This document shows, piece after piece, positions 20,681 through 58,070 of a stretch of 64,000 nucleotides of DNA (positions are counted from its first letter, which is position 1; every line of letters starts with the position of its first letter). Position numbers and translations under genes: made by a program. Source of the DNA: Negaprion brevirostris. Its lineage: Eukaryota. The DNA lies in contig JARDVH010000115.1 of assembly GCA_030324005.1 (NCBI GenBank), forward strand, positions 3,694,232 to 3,758,231. Reading direction: 5' to 3'. The notes beneath the pieces are model-generated. The model was not told the origin of the DNA. It made no database searches and saw only the letters and a list, made by a program, of their open reading frames with translations.

Positions 20681-21987
20681 ACAAAGATGTTCTCAGATGG
20701 CAAACATGTTCTCTGCTGTTGTGTAAAGGTGATTCCTTTGTGAAAAGTTATTCCATGTTTTGGTTTAAAATAGTTCTTTATTGCTATTCCCCACTGTGAC
20801 TATTGTGATTTTATTGTGGCCAACAGCAAAACCATTATTGTTCAAATAATGACATGGAATCTTTTACCTGAGAGAGCAGGGTAGATCCCAATTTAACATC
20901 TCATCAAAAAGACAACCCTTCTGACAGTGTGATATTCTCTTCGTATTGCACTGAAGATTATAAAGCTGGATTATGGTACTTGGGTCTCCAGAGTGGGATT
21001 TTAACTCATACCTTTCTGACATAGAGGTGAGAGGGGTTATGGGATATGGAGGGAAAATAGGATCAAGTTACTGAGTTGGATGATCAGCCATAATCACAAT
21101 GATTGATGGAGCAGGCTTGAAGGGCCAGATGGCCTACTCCTACTTTCTAGATTTCTATGTTTGAATACTTTCTATCTGCTTGCATGTTATTGCAACACCA
21201 AGAATAATCCAGAAGCTCAACAGCACCTAGGACAAAGCTGACACTCCATCCACCAGATTAAACATTCAAGCCCTGCACACCACTGCTGCACAGATGTACC
21301 GTATGCAAAATGTACTGCAGAAACTCACCAAGGCTCCTTTAGCTGTGTGTTCCAAGCCAGTGTCCTCTATCACCTGGAGGGACAAGGGGAAGGGAACACC
21401 ACCAGTTTCAAATTCCCCTCCAAGTCACACACCACCCTAACTTCACTTGTTGCTGGGTCAAAAACATGGAACTCCCTCTCTAACAATAGTTTTAAAAGTT
21501 TATTTATTAGTGTTACAAGTAGTCTTACATTAACACCGCAATGAAATTACTGTGAAAATCCAAAACTTTGGATATATCTACATCAATAGTAAGAAAAAGT
21601 GGCATTCCATTCTACATTCTTCAGGGTAATTGGACATGTATAATGTAGGCTGGCCTTGCCAGCAACTCCCACATCCCATGAATGAATATGAATATTAAAT
21701 ATAAAGTGTAGAACTTCCACATTGTTACACTGCAGCCTAGAATTTGTGCTCAAATATCTGTAATGGGATTTGAACATGTCGCCTACCACTACTTTGGAAC
21801 TACTCTCCAAAGCAGTTTGTTTTCTACATATGTTTCAACAATCCTATATCGCTGTGTACCTCTGCAGCTGTGTTCTTCTGTATGTGATCTCCTATGTACC
21901 AAAGCTTCTGTGTTGTGGTCACAATGATATATCCTTGGTGGAAAAACTAACTGATATGCTCTCTCTTTTCTTACTGACAGTGCCGCG

Positions 21988-23073
21988 ATGATTGTCAACA
22001 CAACACTGAATCAGTTTCTGGCAGGAACTTCAAATCTTAGCACTGCTGGCAGCCTCAATGATTCAGACTCTTGCCCTGAAGGTGACTTCTGGGAGTGGCT
22101 TTTTATCTTCCAACACATTTACATAATGCTGGTGAGCATCATTGGTCTTGTGGGAAACAGCTTTGTCCTGATCGTCATGTGTTTACACAAAGGCCATTGC
22201 ACAGTGCCGGAGATCTACTTGGGAAACCTAGCTGGTGCTGACCTGCTCTTCATGGCATGCCTCCCATTCTGGGCTGTTAACATTGCCCGCCGTTACAGTT
22301 GGCCTTTTGGAGAGTTCCTCTGCCGTTATGTCAACTCAGTTATTTACATGAACCTTTACAGTAGTGTCTACCTCCTGGTGATGGTCAGCATCGATCGCTA
22401 CCTAGCTCTGGTGAAAGTCCTGGATCATGGCAGGATACGGTCAGTCTCATGTGCCAAGGTCATCTGCTTCTTCATCTGGATGTTTGGCTTGTTGATGAGC
22501 AGCCCCATCATTATATTCCGAAAAGTGATCGATGTCGAACATTTGAATATCTCTGCCTGCCTAATCAAATATCCCCACGAATCCTGGAACCTGCAGATGG
22601 ACATTACATTGATAGTCATCGTTTTCCTGGTGCCTTCTGCCATCATCAGTTACTGCACCTTCCAAATTCTGAAAGTTCTAAGAAACAACCAAATGCAACG
22701 TTTCAAGCAAGTACGTAAGGAAAGAAAGGCGACCTGTTTGGTCCTCGTTGTCCTCTTGGTTTTCATCATTTGCTGGATGCCCTTTCAGCTCCTCCGGTTT
22801 CTCAGCATCTTCAGTCAGACAAATTTATTGTCAAGCTGTACCTGGTACACTGCCATTAGTAATGGTAATCAGATTGCAACATTTCTTGCATGCACCAACA
22901 GCTGCATCAATCCCATACTTTATGTCCTGGTGGGAAAACAATTCAGGAAGAAAGCAAAGGAATTTTATATCCAAACCGTAGCCAGGAGGATGTCATCGTG
23001 GAATTTCACTGACTCCTTTACAACCCAGACCACATCAGTAAATAGTAAACAGTTCAATAGGGAGCAGGCATGA
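21988..23073 (+). CDS. BDKRB2: B2 bradykinin receptor-like class A GPCR, 361 aa, single coding exon
   Basis: Intact 7TM ORF with N-glycosylation sequons, CLHKGHCTVPEIYLGNLAGADL, LPFWA, MNLYSS, SIDRYLALVK, LRNNQMQRFK..ERKAT, CWMPFQ and NSCINPILYVLVGKQFRKK, all B2-receptor hallmarks. The acceptor ttactgacag|TGCCGCG-ATG lies 7 nt upstream, resembling the human BDKRB2 coding exon start. It may be a B2 paralogue rather than the strict orthologue. Confidence 0.9.
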   Translation: MIVNTTLNQFLAGTSNLSTAGSLNDSDSCPEGDFWEWLFIFQHIYIMLVSIIGLVGNSFVLIVMCLHKGHCTVPEIYLGNLAGADLLFMACLPFWAVNIARRYSWPFGEFLCRYVNSVIYMNLYSSVYLLVMVSIDRYLALVKVLDHGRIRSVSCAKVICFFIWMFGLLMSSPIIIFRKVIDVEHLNISACLIKYPHESWNLQMDITLIVIVFLVPSAIISYCTFQILKVLRNNQMQRFKQVRKERKATCLVLVVLLVFIICWMPFQLLRFLSIFSQTNLLSSCTWYTAISNGNQIATFLACTNSCINPILYVLVGKQFRKKAKEFYIQTVARRMSSWNFTDSFTTQTTSVNSKQFNREQA

Positions 23074-27812: not shown

Positions 27813-30445
27813 AAAAGGTTTACATCCTTTTTCACAAAAGGTGACTAGCTTCCAATACACTGCTGATGTTGAATACACCTGAAATTTTCAAGATTGATAC
27901 TGATAGATAATGTTGGGCTAGATATCAAAGGATACCCCTCATCAATTCCAGTCAATACATTGTTGTTTACCTGACACACATTTGCCTCAGATACACTTCT
28001 TCTTCAAAATAAATGACAGAATTACATCATTTGTTATCACAGTGCAGTGCCAACATCACAGCTAACCCAGGCCACCAGAAATAACTCCTTGTGAGTTCTT
28101 TCATACCTATGACTCCTTCATGAGGTTATTCCAGTTAACGTTTCTGCAAATGTGGAAGCCTGATTATCATGATCCTCAGTAACAGTATACTGTTTTCTAT
28201 TATTAGCTCAAGTTCCCTTGTTCAATATGGCTTGAATTTTGAATTCCTCTTCTGTTTATCCAATGGGATTCCTTTCAAAATAAACTAGCATAATCTTCTC
28301 CATCAGTGGATCTGACCCAGTGCATTTTTATACTTGAGAGGCTGTAATATGTACACCACCAATTCTCCTGTGATTTGACTTTGTCCTGAATTGGTAGAGG
28401 TGATTTCAGCATTGGCACCCTGCTCAGACCTTCTGCATTTAATCTTGTAATTATGTGTTGATAAGATGAAGGACCCTCCCTATGAACGAGTCCTTGCTAA
28501 AGATGGTATTCCCTTCTACGGACCAAAGATCATAAGGCCTGTGGTTTGTTGACAAGGTAAAATGTCTTCCATACAGATAGTGATGAAATCTTGTGATTCC
28601 TTATCTATACTCAGGGATTCCTTTTCCAGTTGAGCATCATTTTGTTCAGCGCTTGTAAATGTTCTTGAAGCAAAAACTATTGGTCTTCCACTTCCATTTA
28701 CATTATATGAGAGACAATTGTGCCCACCCTATAGGGCAATGTGTCATATGCGAGTTGTCCTTAAATTTGGGTTGAAATGAACTAAGACCTCTGATTTCAT
28801 TAGCATATTTTTGACTTCATTATGTGCCTTTTCGCTGTCTTTTGTCCAAGTCCATTATTGATACACCTATAACAAAAGTATAAAGTGGTTTTAGCATAGT
28901 AACGAGATTTGGAAAATATTTTCCATATTAATTGATTTAAAAAGTCCAACAAAAACATCTCAGTTGCAATATATTCTGCAAGTATAAGCATATCTAAAAT
29001 CGCAGTCATCTTCTTAGGTTTCTTGTGGAGTCCATCATTATCAATTACGTGGTCTAGATAGCTTACTGATGACTTTAAAAATTCACATTTTTCTTTCTTC
29101 ACATGGAGATTGTGCTTCTCCACACACACTTCAGTGTTTCCTCTAAGTTCTGTACATGTTTCTGTACATCTTAGCCCATTCAAATACTATCCAAATAACC
29201 ATTAGGCCACTAAGGATTTGATCCATTGATTTTTGGCATAAGAGAGGCGCTGATTTTATTCCAAACAGTAGGCATTTATATTGGAACAATCCTTTGGGAG
29301 TAACAATCATTAACAGAGATTATGACTCAGTTGCCACCTTCATTTGGAGATATGCTTGGGACAAGTCTATCTTACTGAACTGCTGACCCCCAGGCAATCT
29401 AGCGAATAGGTCCCCGATTAATAGTAAAGGGGGTTGGTCAATACGGAGCATTGGATTTATTGTTGTTTTGAAGTCACTGCAAATTCTTATCAAGCCATCG
29501 AGTTTAATGACAGGGATAAATGCAGTTGCCCAATTACTCGTGGCTATGGACTCAATCAATCCAGCCTTGATTCAATTGTTCAAGTTGCATTTCAACTTAA
29601 AGCTTGATAGCATAAGGCAAAGTTCTTGCCTTCAAGCACTTTGAGCTGCTATCAAGTTTTATCATAAATCATGACACGAGTCCAGACATTTCCCCTAAAG
29701 TTCTTTTCATCAACTAATTAGTTAATTACTTGCCAATTTAGTTTGATTTTGTTTAACTAAACTCTTTTGAAAAGTGCAGGAAAATTTCTTTTTGTGTAAT
29801 GGCAATTTGCCAGNNNNNNNNNNNNNNNNNNNNNNNNNNNNNNNNNNNNNNNNNNNNNNNNNNNNNNNNNNNNNNNNNNNNNNNNNNNNNNNNNNNNNNN
29901 NNNNNNNNNNNNNTTGACCCTTGCTCTGCCAAATACCTTACATCATAATGCATGCAGGCACATATCATCACAATACAGCAAAGTTTTATGTTTTGATAAT
30001 TCTTTCACAATCTTGGTCTGTCACCTGTGAAGGAATGGGTTGTTGTAATCTGTTTCTGGTACTTATGTTACGTGATAAAGTTTTTCCTCTTTCCAGCATT
30101 CCAATTCAGCATCTTTCTCATTGATCATTTTACCGTATTGGTGCTATTCCATTGATGTGACCATTTCAGCAATCTTGTTTTTAATGCCTTCTCTAAAGGT
30201 TTAATTCTTTTTGCTGATTCCTCTTTGTGTTCAATAGTTCCTAGTTTCTTTAATTACTGCATTTTTTTCTGAGATGAATCCACCATGTTCATACTGTTCA
30301 AACTATATTGCACAAACAGAACCTTCATTTCTACTTGTCTTGTCTTTAGCTAAACTTCACTGTTGGTTGGCTATGTCTCTGACAAAGTATTCACTTCTTT
30401 CCATTCTGCAATTTTCTCATTGCTCTTTTTTTGTTCATTTAGTGT

Positions 30446-30750
30446 CTTTCATTGCCCTTCTTCTGGGATCTTTCATTGCCCTTCTTCTGGGGTTTTTCAT
30501 TGCCCTCCTTCTGGGATCTTTCATTGCCCTCCTTCTGGGATCTTTCAGAGCTCTTTCTCTGGGATCTTTCATTGCCCTCCTTCTGGGATCTTTCATTGCC
30601 CTCCTTCCGGGATCTTTCATTGCCCTTCTTCTGGGGTTTTTCATTGCTCTCCTTCTGGGATCTTTCATTGCCCTCCTTCTGGGATCTTTCATTGCCCTTC
30701 TTCTGGGGTTTTTCATTGCCCTTCTTCTGGGATCTTTCATTGCCCTCCTG
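30446..30750. repeat. 24-bp minisatellite (~12-13 copies) inside the Gypsy gag region
   Basis: Unit tctttcattgccct(c/t)cttctggg(a/g), repeated with few variants. Confidence 0.95.
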
Positions 30751-31786
30751 AGGTCTTCAGTCGCGTCTTTCCTGAGGTTTTCATTTCCTTCTCTGAGGTT
30801 TTCTGTTGCCTCCTCTGAAGCCTTTCATTGCCTCTTCCTTGACGTCTTTGTTGCTTGTGAATCCTTTTTGAGAGTTGGATTTCTTTTGGGGTTCTCCAAT
30901 TTTCCTGTTCATTGTCCACTGTTTCTTCTTGTGGTTGCTGCTTTAAATGCATTTCCACATTAAACATATTATAACTTTGAATGTATCATCTCTTGAAATA
31001 CATTATCACTTTAAGACTGTCAATTTATTTTCAAACTGTTGTCAGCAGCTGTTGGTTTTGTATTTTTCCTTAACCTTTGAAGTCCAGGTGTGAAGCTTGA
31101 CTGCTCCTTTTTGAACCTTTTCATTATTTTTAACATCTCTGCAGTTTTTTTTCTCTTTTTGCTGCCTGGAGATTTTTTCTACCTTTGATGTGTTTGTTTG
31201 TTAATTTCACTGCACGATCCAGCACTGTCCATTTCTTTTAACTCTTTAACTTCTCCTTTTCAAATAGGTTGCTGACATTCCTCCAAAACTTTGGAACCTT
31301 GCTGTCTGCAGTCCCTCAGTTCAGGGACTGCCACCCAGACCCCACTCCTCTGCAATCTCTGTTGTGATCAGGAGCCTAACAATCTTACTCTCTTTAGTTT
31401 CTTGTTGTTTTTAAAAACTTGCTCTAGTTCCTTGGGACAATTTTCCCTTTTCAATTTAAACACTGCTCTCTGTGTTCTTTCTTTTTTATTTTAAAAAAAT
31501 CTTTACAGCAACTCTTTATTTTGTTTCCAACCTAAGTTTCACTTTTCCAAACTCAAAATCATAGCTCCTGCTTCTGAAGAATATTTTCTCTTGATTTTGT
31601 TACATATGTTTAAACTTTAGACTATATCATTCAATTCAGGCCTGCTCCGCCCCCATCACTCAGGGTCTTGCAACATCTCAAAATGTCACTCATCTATTCG
31701 CCCAAAGACAGGCATTCAGATGAGTATTTTTTTTCAGACTTCAATAAAAACAGGATACTCACAGTTGTCGGGCCACAGGCATCAAT

Positions 31787-53599: not shown

Positions 53600-56500
53600 T
53601 TCAACATTGGAGGTTAAGTCCTGAAGGGAGAAACGTGATGAGATGAAATGACGCCAAAGACAAAATAACATCCATCTGGTAGGCCTTGCAGAGGGAATTA
53701 AGAGCCCAAATATCACAGACTCTGTCACCCGGCTATTGAAGAATGTGATGCAACTTGAGAATTAGCCACTTCTGGATCACAAAGCCCAGGCCAGGAGAAG
53801 CTCCTCGGCCTATTATTGCACAAGTACATTACATCTCAGCACAAGACAGAATCCTGCAGCAAGCAGCACAGGCTACCACTCTGAGGTACCAGGAGAATAA
53901 GCAGTTAATAGTTCCAGATTTTACCCCAGTGATAGCAAGAAGGGCAGCCTTCGCTGGTGTCAAAGAACTTCTGCATGACTGGCCTGGGGTCAGGTTTGGG
54001 CTTCGCTTTCCAGTCTGCTTGAGGATCACTCTCAACAATGGAACTGAGCACAAATTCACGGACCCACCGGTGGCGATGAAATTTGTGGAGCAGCTTTTTA
54101 AATTGGATGACTGCATGGTGGATGTAACCTGATATTTGTTTTTTATGAACCTGCATGCTATACCTGGATCGAATTGTTGTCCAGGAAAGGGTAATGGGTT
54201 TTGCGACTGTTAGGTTAAGTGTTTGGTACTTCTACAGACCTTTTCAGGTTATAGCATCTGTGACTGCAATGGGAATGGAGGTGAAGATTGTGTCCATGCA
54301 GAGTGCTGTGAAAGTGCCGCAGTAAGGAGGTGTTGGAGGCACAGGTGTCCTTTTTTGGGAGGGTATATGTGGGGAGGGATTGGGGAACGCTGTGTTTGTG
54401 AGTTTGGTCTGTGTGGGTATTTTTGTGTTTTTGCTATATCTTCTTTTCTCTGTGGGTATGGTTTGGCCTCTTTCAAGCCTGTCCTCCCTTTCTCATGGTT
54501 GGTTCCCTGCGGCCGATGGGGAAGGTGGAGGGTAGGACCCTGGGGTGTGGCGTCTGTCAATGTCAGCGGTTGGGGGGAAACCTGCAGTGAGGAGGGATAG
54601 CAGGCTACTGTTAGGAATGTGGGATGCTACCTAGGAGGCCCTTAGGCTCTGACCTCGGAGCACTAGCTGGAATGTCAGGGTATTAAATCATCTGGTTAAA
54701 TGTGGTAAGATATTTCAACATCTTCAAAAACTCGGTACCTAAATTGCATTCCTCGAAGAGACCTGCCTCAGGCCAGTGGACTGTTTTAGGTTCCGTATGG
54801 GGGGGCGTCAATGCCTTCACTCAACTTTTCACATCAAGGCACAGGGGGCAGCAATCCTTATCCACAAGTCATTGCCCTTGGTAGTAACCAATGTCATTTC
54901 TGACTCAAATGAACAATATGTCATTGTTGTGGGTAAATTATATGGGACTGCCCCAATGTTAGCCAATGTGTAAGCCCTAAACTGGAACTGTGAAAACTTT
55001 TTCCAGTTGTTTCTTGTGCTACTTCCAGATTTGAATTCACATCAGTTGATTCTGGGCTGAGATTTCAACTATTGGTTGAATTCTGCCCTGGACTGCTCCT
55101 CCCCCAGGACCGCTGTATCTTCCAAGTTGGCAGAAATCATTTCTCATGGAATACGCAGTGTTGGACCCATGGAGATTTCTTAATCCAACCAATAGGGAAT
55201 ATTCTTTTTTTTCACCTATCCACCAAACCTATTCACGTATAGATTACTTTTTGGTAGAAAACAAGTTGCTTTCAGCTGTGCGCTCATGCTCCTACGAAAT
55301 CATTGTAATCTTGGACCATGCTCCCTTGACAATGGACTTGGTAGTAGGGAGGAGAGTGGACCCCTGTACGCCTTGGTGATTTAATACTTATCTGCTGTCT
55401 GATGATGAGTTTGTTAAGGTTTCGGTTAACCCAGATCGATGATTTCTTAGAGTTTAATGATGCTCTTTTCCAAAGGAAAAGAGGGCATAGGTTTAAAGTG
55501 ATAGGGGAGACACACAAAAGTGTCCAGAGGGTCAATTTTTTCACATAGGGTGTGGTGAATGTCTGGAACAAGCTGCTAGAGGTACAATTTTATCTTTTAA
55601 AAAGCATTTAGATAGTTACATGGGTAAGATGGTATAGAGGGATATGGTCCAAATGTAGGCAATTGAGATTAGCTTAGGGGTCTAAAAAAAAAAGCAGCTT
55701 GGACAAATCAGGCCGAAGGGCCTGTTTCCATGCTGTAAACCTCTATGAGTCTATGACTCTGGGAGTCTCAGAGAACTGCTACCTTATGGGAGATATTGAA
55801 GGCTTATTTAAGAGGCCAGATCTTATTCAACGCACAAGGTGAAGCAGAAAGGTAAGAGGTATCGGACTCACTGGGGCATTTCACCCAAATTAATGCTGCA
55901 TACGCTGTGGGCCTGTCCCCAGAGGTATATAAGGAACATTTACTACTTCTGGCGAAGTTTGAGACCTTGTCCTCATGTCAAGCGGAAAAGATGATGTTCA
56001 AAACTAAGTATACACACTATGAACATGGGGACAAGGCAAACAAGCAACTCGCTCATCAGATGAGCCAATTCTCCGCCAAAAGTCTAATACCACAAATGCA
56101 AACTCCGAATGATCCACAGTGCATAAATGAACTGTTTAGGGACTTTTACTCAATTCTCTGTAGCTCGGACATTACCGCCAACGAGGCGGACTTTCAGGAG
56201 TTTTTTGGGGCACTGAATCTCCCCTTGGTGGACAGGGGAGAGGCTGCAGCACTGGAGAAACCAACTGATGTTGAAGAAATTGTCAGAGCTGCCAGAACTA
56301 TGCTGAGTGGGAAACGTCTGGGCCCAGATGGGTACCTCATTGAATTCTACAAAAAATTTATGGATAGGTTGGCTCCCCTGCTACTACGCATGATCAATGA
56401 ATCGAATGAAAACCGCGCTCTCCCACAGACTTTGAGGCAAGCGACAATTTAGTTTATCCTTAAAAAGAATAAGGCCCCGCAATTCTGCAGCTCCTACAGA

Positions 56501-58070
56501 CCGATCTCAAATTCATGCTGAACGTGGATCTCGAACTGATCTCTTAAATTCTGGCCATTCGCTTGGAGGACATTCTGCCCTCTATCATCTCGCTGACCAG
56601 ACTGGATTTATTAAAAACAGACATATGTACTTGAATATTTGGCAGCTGTTTCACATTTTGTATGCGCCTGCTGCCTGCCACCTCCAAGTTCCCATAGGTG
56701 TTAATCTTGCTGCTGCTGAAAAAGTGTTTGATTGGGTGGAATGGCGTTATTTATTTTATGCTCTTGGGTGGGTCAGGTTCGGGCCAGAGCTCATCTCCTG
56801 GATCAAAATATTGTACTCCGCCCCTCTAGCTTCGGTCTGGACAAACAATGTGCATTCAGCTTTTTTCCCTTTGTTCCGGGGCACTAGGCAAGGATGCCCC
56901 CTTCCCCCTGTTATTTGCCATTACAATTGAACCTCTTGCTACGGCTTTTCACAATAGTAAACGAGTGGTGGGGATTGGTTGGGAGGGAATTGATGGAGAG
57001 TATCGCTGTACGCGGATGACCTTCTATTGTACGTCGGCAACTCATCCAACTCGATTCCCGAAGTCTTATCTATACTAGAGAGGTTTGGTCGTATTTCGGG
57101 GTACAAGCTCAACTTGATTACGTGTGAGCTCCTTCCTTTCAATACAATGGCTCATAGCCTCCCGCTCCACAAGCCTTTCAAGGTCGTTATTAGGCAGTTT
57201 ACTTACTTGGGGGTGCAAGTGACTAGCAAATTTAGAGGGCGCTTTGAAGCTAACTTTGCTTTACTCATGGGGCAGACGGAACAGGATCTCAAATGTTGGT
57301 CCACTCTCCTGTCATTGTTAGCGGGCTATATCAATGCGGTGAAGATGAATATACTACCTAAATTTTTATATCTCTTTCAATGCTTTCTGGTGTTCATCCC
57401 TAAATCCTTTCCTCACAGATTCAATCGGCCCAAGCCTTTGTCTGGAATAGCAAAAGCCCAAGAAAACAGAGAGCAGACTTGCAAAGCCCTAATTGCCCAA
57501 TTTTCTATTTTATTATTGGGCAGCCATTTTGAGATTGGAAGTGTGTTGGGTGCAGAGAGAAAGACAACCTAAAGTTCCTTTTTAACTGCAGTTAGAATCC
57601 TCCTGTGCTCCGTCTTCCTTGGCTGCCTTGATATGTTCCTGGTAAATTATCCCTCCTCTCAGTATACTAGGAATGCATTTGTCAATTCAACTTAGAATTT
57701 TGACGCAATTTAGATGCCACTTTGGGTTTCAAGCCTGGTCACTGGTCTTCCCAATATCGGCTTTTCCCTCTGTTTCCGATGGTGCCTTCAACACATGGGT
57801 CAAGCGCAGGATCAGAGCATTCGGGACTTATATGTGGACAGCGTGTTTGCGTCATTCCAGCAAGTGGTGGTTAAGTTTGCTTTACCTGCAATGCCCTTTT
57901 TCAGATATTTGCAGACTTTGCGTGGAGGGCTGACTCTCAATTTCCAATGTTCCCACCTCGTGTCTCCATTGGCATCTTCTTAGTGCCTTCCATTACTATG
58001 CGTGGTATCATTTCTGTTCTTTATTCTCAAATTCTGTCCCAACAAAACTCTCTATCAGTGTTAAATCTTT
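53600..58070 (+). mobile_element. L1/Tx1-type LINE (ORF1 plus ORF2), decayed, intronic and antisense to the host gene
   Basis: ORF1 RQRQNNIHLVGLAEG, PRPGEAPRPIIAQVH, IVPDFTP and GLRFPVCLRIT. EN SWNVRVLN..IAFLEET and YSRIDYFLV..LDHAPL. RT GPDGYLIEFYKKF, RGTRQGCPL, LYADDLLLY and FGRISGYKLN. Confidence 0.9.
55462..55758 (+). mobile_element. CR1/HER1 3' fragment nested in the L1 ORF2
   Basis: GHRFKVIGE..RGSIF..RVVNVWNKL with a ctatga-repeat tail. The L1 text FLEFND...LWEILKAYLRGQI is split around it. Confidence 0.85.

Follow-up and report, generated by a model that had tools for sequence, protein, structure and literature searches.

A B2-like kinin receptor with an altered ligand pocket in sharks and rays, and kininogen segments that lack Arg9

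What does a kinin receptor read when residues that recognize bradykinin have been replaced? The question is raised by a locus in the 64,000-nt stretch of Negaprion brevirostris DNA analysed here (the window), where a segment at 22321..22875 was originally predicted to encode a B2-like receptor with a rewired ligand pocket that had co-evolved with an uncharged, des-Arg-type kinin or another ligand. That segment lies within a 361-aa coding frame with zero stops (Table 1). The product contains a Pfam 7tm_1 domain (214.9 bits), its AlphaFold2 model has seven helices at a mean pLDDT of 85, and the DRY, CWxP and NPxxY motifs are intact, as befits a class A (rhodopsin) GPCR. The coding region is probably a single 3′ exon, with one or more further exons upstream. 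The shark receptor is no new gene family; its nearest catalogued protein among the matches listed (RefSeq/UniRef) is a Mustelus asterias 'B2 bradykinin receptor-like' protein with 92% identity, which marks the source as a carcharhiniform-like shark, and elasmobranch 'B2 bradykinin receptor-like' and 'kininogen-1' entries are already catalogued, under automatic names only. A literature search that was thin on subscription journals turned up no work dealing with kinin receptors of chondrichthyans or their pocket change; shark sequences could already appear in published kinin alignments, whether as figures or supplementary material.

Table 1 Receptor gene features in the window (counts refer to the matches listed)
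Feature	Position	Strand	Basis
Splice acceptor (pyrimidine tract plus AG), 7 bases before ATG	21961..21980	+	Sequence; use as acceptor presumed
B2-lineage (favoured) kinin receptor CDS, 361 aa, seven helices, DRY/CWxP/NPxxY intact	21988..23073	+	ORF, Pfam, phmmer, model, Foldseek
Tyr120 (3.33), ancestral B2 state	22345..22347	+	16/16 elasmobranch, 30/93 bony B2
Arg178 (4.64), B2 carboxylate anchor kept	22519..22521	+	16/16 and 93/93; role from human B2R
Asp205 (5.39), acid adjoining Arg270, possible counter-ion	22600..22602	+	Asp/Glu in 14/16 elasmobranch, 26/93 bony; putative contact
Arg270 (6.55), elasmobranch-wide gain; the human B2R site touches the kinin's last Arg	22795..22797	+	15/16 vs 1/93
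Ser273 (6.58), acid lost, drifting site	22804..22806	+	Acid in 1/16 vs 88/93
Ser291 (7.32), acid lost, variable site	22858..22860	+	Acid in 2/16 vs 84/93
Asn292 (7.33), invariant across cartilaginous fish	22861..22863	+	16/16 and chimaera, 0/93 bony
Cys302 (7.43), in place of the Tyr/Phe/Leu flooring the Phe8 pocket	22891..22893	+	14/16 vs 0/93; role of Y7.43 from bioRxiv 2021.05.27.446069

Pocket residues across species

We compared the receptor with the best 120 of 433 matches, 111 of which were aligned with the query once nine fused or over-long entries had been dropped. The elasmobranch set comprises 16 receptors, one per species and this shark included; for Heterodontus and Scyliorhinus canicula an additional copy, divergent in the latter, was set aside. 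The comparison rows are the chimaera receptor and 93 others, 15 of which are classed as bony by identity alone. Generic residue numbers were counted by hand from the helix reference residues, and we take the human short numbers D266, D284, T263 and S111 of the original prediction to be D293, D311, T290 and S138 of the papers (offset 27).

The gap-free TM6-ECL3-TM7 alignment to human B2 receptor (B2R) on which the prediction rested was reproduced by phmmer against PDB chains, and the codons confirm Arg at 6.55 and Ser for both aspartates, 6.58 and 7.32. The change is common to other sharks: among the matches listed, both sites are non-acidic in 13/16 elasmobranch receptors and 1/93 bony B2 receptors, a difference beyond chance. 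Each acid is rare in elasmobranchs when taken singly, and the chimaera keeps Glu at 7.32 (Table 1). Arg6.55 stands where Thr is found in 84 of the 93 bony receptors listed and in the chimaera. As foreseen for ECL3, residues 270–295 hold no Asp or Glu, which is also true of 6/16 elasmobranch and 0/93 bony receptors among those listed; ECL2 of the shark receptor retains three acids. These sequences support a lineage-wide change of the pocket rather than private decay.

Two parts of the predicted rewiring did not hold up. Tyr120 does occupy the TM3 selectivity site, but it is no novelty, since Tyr is also the commonest residue there in the bony B2 receptors listed, where the human Ser occurs in 4/93. 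Nor does Ser look like a selected replacement; only 4/16 of the elasmobranch receptors listed have it at 6.58 and 8/16 at 7.32, so that of the four sites highlighted, Arg270 and Tyr120 are shared and the two serines are not. Site 6.58 carries eight different residues in the 16 receptors (pairwise identity 0.11 versus 0.84) and ranks within the 2% least conserved elasmobranch columns. We conclude that the sites that lost their acids drift.

The deep pocket is held. W2.60, R4.64, W6.48, F6.51 and F7.40 are unchanged in 16/16 elasmobranch receptors, and Arg4.64 is universal among the receptors counted. Within elasmobranchs, mean pairwise identity is 0.88 in the deep pocket, 0.13 at the entrance and 0.71 over all columns; the deep-pocket set consists of twelve sites from papers and two (5.39 and 7.33) added post hoc, after the table had been inspected. 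The original prediction had missed Asn7.33, Cys7.43 and the acid at 5.39, each widespread in the elasmobranch receptors listed (Table 1).

Both acids that B2 uses for the N-terminal amine are missing, with Tyr287 at 7.28 and Ser291 at 7.32. Where B2 combines an acid at 6.58 with a small polar residue at 6.55, this receptor has Ser273 and Arg270, and in place of the B1 signature of Lys3.33 and Arg5.38 it has Tyr120 and Met204. Judged by its pocket residues, the receptor is thus neither a pharmacological B2 nor a pharmacological B1. The hagfish receptor has Thr6.55 with Glu7.32 and that of the lamprey Asp6.58 with Glu7.32; the combination of Thr6.55 and an acid at 7.32, shared by chimaera, hagfish and bony fish, makes the state seen in sharks a derived one. 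Arg6.55 also occurs with Asp6.58 and Asp7.32 retained in an Amia paralogue (P0036) and in the receptor of the arowana Scleropages (P0278), members of a ray-finned B2 paralogue lineage and an independent gain, and therefore Arg6.55 alone does not imply an Arg-less ligand.

Descent of the receptor

Is this a B2 receptor by descent? Against PDB chains, phmmer places human B2R first (323 bits) and B1R next (238 bits), and Foldseek with the receptor model returns B2 at ranks 1–2 and B1 at rank 3. In a 46-row tree the receptor falls, on a short branch of its own (0.068), within a chondrichthyan clade (100/99) that tracks the species tree and joins bony B2 at 92/91; a 20-row tree groups chondrichthyan and bony B2 receptors at 75/93. 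Neither B2 placement is starred, and the B1 rows are long branches, just two or three in number. On the 20-row tree a pre-duplication position was rejected (p-AU 0.028), and a clade of sharks with B1 was not (p-AU 0.165).

A genome search with the receptor protein and alligator B1, in which the best 113/646 and 110/590 candidates were scored across 96,185 contigs, found no B1 gene; among those candidates, only two genes came back, the receptor itself and a paralogue (62%) located on contig C8502. The absence of B1 from the genome is not proven, because part of the candidates were scored and the assembly is in 96,185 contigs. ATG2 and GSKIP exons lie about 2.1 Mb from the receptor on its scaffold, C115, a linkage that cannot separate B1 from B2; ATG2B and GSKIP are neighbours of the human BDKRB2 locus. 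If the receptor descended from B1, or from before the B1/B2 split, a preference for des-Arg ligands would have been inherited rather than re-invented on a B2 scaffold. The failure to find a separate B1 gene among the candidates scored and the p-AU of 0.165, obtained with so few and such long B1 branches, would suit this descent, but we consider it unlikely in view of the bit scores, the Foldseek ranking, the best trees, the rejected pre-duplication placement and the lack of K3.33 and R5.38. The sequence data favour, but do not prove, B2 descent.

The paralogue, a fast copy at L002:148-1248 (-) on C8502, has an open frame and pairs at 100/99 with the divergent Scyliorhinus canicula copy. Its Arg4.64 is replaced by Glu, it has Lys6.55, and its NPxxY motif reads DPxxY; it may have a new ligand or be a decaying duplicate. 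The receptor and this paralogue give a dN/dS of 0.47 over 319 codons, a pair that does not gauge constraint on the receptor gene. Of the two Heterodontus receptors (P0006 and P0011), the second copy has Thr6.55, Gln4.64 and a TM2 deletion.

Decay of the whole elasmobranch kinin system, with the substitutions as mere drift, is a most improbable explanation. The poor conservation of 6.58 could be read in this way, as could the key pocket residues missing from the fast paralogue and from the extra Heterodontus receptor. However, frames are open in 16/16 species at identities of 56–92%, the tree is species-like with short branches, R6.55, N7.33 and the pocket floor are held, and so is the kinin core in all 18 segments described below.

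Kininogen and its kinin segment

A search of the genome with a skate-type motif pattern returned 39 matches against 22 in a reversed control, and we regard the sole exact match, which had Cys4 in a closed frame, as chance. A single-exon homologue search for kininogen gave no match. On scaffold C163, a search for cystatin domains revealed a kininogen with two of them. Its exons 5 and 6 are linked in an RNA-library contig from a related organism (run X5), which continues in frame into a further exon; runs X1, X2 and X6 matched mainly repeats and carry no information on expression. A six-exon kininogen profile, first checked on simulated relatives, matched 17 kininogens out of 829 candidates, and the 14 with species names are all from sharks or rays; a chimaera kininogen, which would be the natural control, is not among the 17 profile matches. 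The kininogen of Mustelus asterias is an orthologue, with 87% identity over the first exon.

The kinin exon of this shark lies at C99:44071672-44071848 (-), has a good acceptor and the correct phase, and reads DFLTL-RYAGWGPF-SDVRE. It sits on an 8-kb piece flanked by 100-N gaps in scaffold C99, with exons 1–6 on C163. Relative to the Mustelus protein, the kinin exon covers residues 269–329 and the C163 part residues 1–276, so that the exon supplies exactly the missing portion. It was not found in the 80 kb around the C163 kininogen locus, where a 4,279-N gap follows exon 6, and mis-scaffolding is the likely explanation for the split. A second sign of scattered exons comes from the GSKIP profile, whose two halves match different scaffolds, C164 (L065) and C115 (L066). 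Downstream of the kinin, the tail of the exon (L059) is out of frame with respect to Mustelus and about 20 residues shorter. Further cystatin-domain genes (L026, L030 and L031) lie directly upstream of kininogen at C163:21.97-22.02 Mb and are presumably the fetuin/HRG cluster. Scyliorhinus canicula has two kininogens (P0290 and P0292), one of them with Asp4.

We aligned 18 kinin segments, the 17 profile matches and this shark's own, in the bradykinin register. Trp5 and Pro7 are present in 18/18, Phe or Leu8 in 18/18 and Gly4 in 17/18, whereas Arg9 and Pro2 are each found in 0/18 and neither Arg nor Lys ever occupies position 9. Positions 0–3 vary: Arg1 occurs in 5/18, including the RYAGWGPF (then Ser) of this shark, position 0 is Phe or Leu in 10/18, Pro in 2/18 and Arg or Lys in 2/18, and 7/18 have no Lys or Arg anywhere between −4 and 1. 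The ligand of B1 arises by trimming of Arg9; the shark kinin, unlike it, has no Arg9 to trim. The kinin extracted from this species' own kininogen thus agrees with the predicted des-Arg type, and the prediction of an uncharged ligand fails as a rule; what matches the receptor is loss of Arg9, and the original interpretation is supported to that extent. Conservation in the kinin appears to mirror that in the receptor, with a conserved C-terminal core facing a conserved deep pocket and a variable N-terminus facing a variable entrance.

From skate plasma, an octapeptide with Phe8 at its end was reportedly isolated, free and active, and it is said to be more active than its Arg9 analogue; release of a bioactive kinin from plasma kininogen by a kallikrein is likewise reported for the skate; the peptide and its pharmacology are said to be in Anderson et al. 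2008, and the kinin of Leucoraja erinacea is reportedly the subject of Dasiewicz et al. 2011. The Leucoraja erinacea kinin, as quoted, also has eight residues, and its Trp5, Pro7 and Phe8 fall in the register of the 18 segments.

The bradykinin residues conserved outside this group of vertebrates are Pro2, Gly4, Pro7 and Arg9 (PMC3835742); the shark segments have the location of bradykinin together with Gly4 and Pro7, and lack Pro2 and Arg9. With no basic residue at 9 or 10, the Phe8 end cannot come from Arg-directed cleavage followed by carboxypeptidase trimming, and a cut after Phe/Leu is needed. Such a cut is plausible because tissue kallikrein accepts the Phe-Phe-Ser loop of kallistatin (PMC7356578), an observation that does not itself identify the enzyme.

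On these sequences, the ligand is quite likely to be a peptide from kininogen whose last residue is at position 8. A receptor that had switched to a ligand from outside kininogen, with the GWGPF motif kept for another reason, is by comparison highly unlikely. The lack of a conserved basic flank (Arg or Lys9 in 0/18, none from −4 to 1 in 7/18) and the extra pocket changes N7.33 and C7.43 would be in keeping with such a switch, but the five-residue core is nearly invariant within an otherwise unalignable linker, at the position of bradykinin past the last cystatin domain, and the pocket floor that would read Pro7-Phe8 is conserved.

Receptor and ligand considered together

According to PMC8821558, S6.54, T6.55 and D6.58 of human B2R touch the last Arg of the kinin, and in bioRxiv 2021.05.27.446069 R4.64 holds the carboxylate, E7.28 and D7.32 hold the N-terminal main-chain amine, and the Arg1 side chain reaches ECL2. 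The notion that both acids anchor the kinin N-terminus is therefore correct for D7.32, which binds the amine, but not for D6.58, which contacts the Arg9 side chain; for the same reason, loss of D6.58 tracks Arg9 and not Arg1. In the shark receptor exactly the Arg9-reading residues are lost, and Arg at 6.55 would clash with Arg9. Arg270 with Arg178 could reach a Phe8 carboxylate, and the three acids of ECL2 could serve this shark's Arg1.

The nearest solved sequence and fold is human B2R with bradykinin (PDB 7F6H, 7F2O; 50% identity, rmsd 2.5 Å). The two receptors share W2.60, I3.32, R4.64, W6.48, F6.51, Q7.36 and F7.40 and differ by T6.55 to Arg, loss of D6.58, D7.32 and E7.28, Y7.43 to Cys and V7.33 to Asn; their ligands differ by the Pro2 and Arg9 that the shark kinin lacks. 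Like B1 with des-Arg10-kallidin (PDB 7EIB), the shark receptor is predicted to read a kinin ending in Pro-Phe, with a basic residue near the carboxylate. B1, however, uses K3.33 and R5.38 for the Phe carboxylate and keeps acids at 6.58, 7.28 and 7.32 (bioRxiv 2021.05.27.446069); the shark receptor lacks all three acids and has Y120 and M204 in place of the two basic residues. In the same source, simple residue swaps between human B1 and B2 mostly failed.

The apelin receptor provides a second comparison. Its F3.33, Y6.51 and K6.55 line the C-terminal site of a ligand ending Pro-Phe and, in models, its R4.64 lies on the carboxylate (PMC11680790). The shark receptor resembles it in placing aromatic residues at 3.33 and 6.51, a basic residue at 6.55 and R4.64 around a Pro-Phe-ending ligand (PMC13197934 and PMC11680790), although the receptor and ligand families are separate (28–29% identity) and the layout is convergent at most. 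As to the carboxylate anchor originally proposed at R6.55, the basic 6.55 of the apelin receptor's C-terminal sub-pocket lends it substance, but R6.55 would not act alone, R4.64 being kept in 16/16.

We favour, at a probability of roughly 0.55, an account in which, on the stem of sharks and rays, the pocket of a B2-lineage receptor was retuned to recognize a kininogen peptide that ends in Pro-Phe and has no Arg9. A protease cutting after Phe8 would free the peptide, here predicted to be RYAGWGPF or shorter, and Pro7-Phe8 would insert into the conserved hydrophobic pocket floor. Arg270 would fill the space taken in human B2 by the Arg9 side chain of bradykinin and, with the retained Arg178, hold the Phe8 carboxylate. 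Asp6.58, superfluous without Arg9, and Asp7.32 would have been freed from selection, and signalling would presumably proceed via Gq. The outcome would be a receptor built on a B2 scaffold that prefers ligands much as B1 does, through residues other than the Lys3.33 and Arg5.38 of B1. What the sequences show are the receptor substitutions, how widely these occur, and the reading of the ligand gene; the receptor and ligand changes both fall on one deep branch and amount to one coincidence rather than repeated co-variation. A complex prediction pairing receptor residues 24–332 with 30 residues of Mustelus kininogen up to Phe8 scored 0.31 at best, below the mark of 0.34, and decides nothing either way.

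Several points count against this account. Arg1 is retained in this shark's kinin even though both acids are gone, loss of Arg9 would leave the loss of D7.32 unexplained, Asp205 could neutralize Arg270, and Stegostoma has Gln6.55 alongside an ordinary shark kinin. With the same Phe8-ending ligand, Arg270 might instead pair with Asp205 and plug the empty Arg9 site, leaving Arg178 alone to anchor the carboxylate. We judge this somewhat unlikely. An acid at 5.39 in 14/16 elasmobranch receptors and R4.64 in 16/16, among the matches listed, speak for it, as do the tolerance of Gln6.55 in Stegostoma and the position of R4.64 on the carboxylate in B2R (bioRxiv 2021.05.27.446069) and in apelin-receptor models (PMC11680790). 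However, the acid occurs without Arg6.55 in the chimaera and 26/93 of the bony receptors listed, and Narcine and Mobula have Arg6.55 with Asn5.39; since each occurs without the other, the two are not obligate partners.

Entrance drift is otherwise unexplained, and we therefore also considered that a single cut after Phe8 exposes a C-terminal GWGPF that would activate the receptor while attached to the cystatin domains or with any N-terminus, in the manner of chemerin, which is activated by C-terminal trimming (PMC11592271). Such a mechanism would explain the want of a conserved N-terminal cleavage site (no Lys or Arg from −4 to 1 in 7/18), the loss of the amine-gripping acid (14/16) and the drift at the entrance, and if true would mean a shark kinin system without a B1 gene and without Arg-directed release. 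The free and active skate octapeptide reportedly isolated goes against it, and we think it improbable.

If retuning to an Arg9-less peptide is correct, a whole vertebrate lineage makes a des-Arg-type hormone directly and senses it with a receptor of the B2 lineage, which would have reached B1-like selectivity by a second structural route. The non-canonical kinin reported from the skate would then have its missing receptor named, and nature would have supplied a reciprocal exchange, with Arg9 gone from the ligand and Arg6.55 gained by the receptor, on which the coding of B1/B2 selectivity could be studied. A releasing protease would further be implied in animals listed as without plasma kallikrein (PMC10499198).

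Elsewhere in the window, positions 55856-57572 (+) hold broken LINE-like reverse-transcriptase frames, in which YADD and QGCPL motifs were recognized by eye. A 24-bp tandem repeat of 12.7 copies at 30445-30749 gives rise to a spurious 229-aa ORF at 30274-30963.
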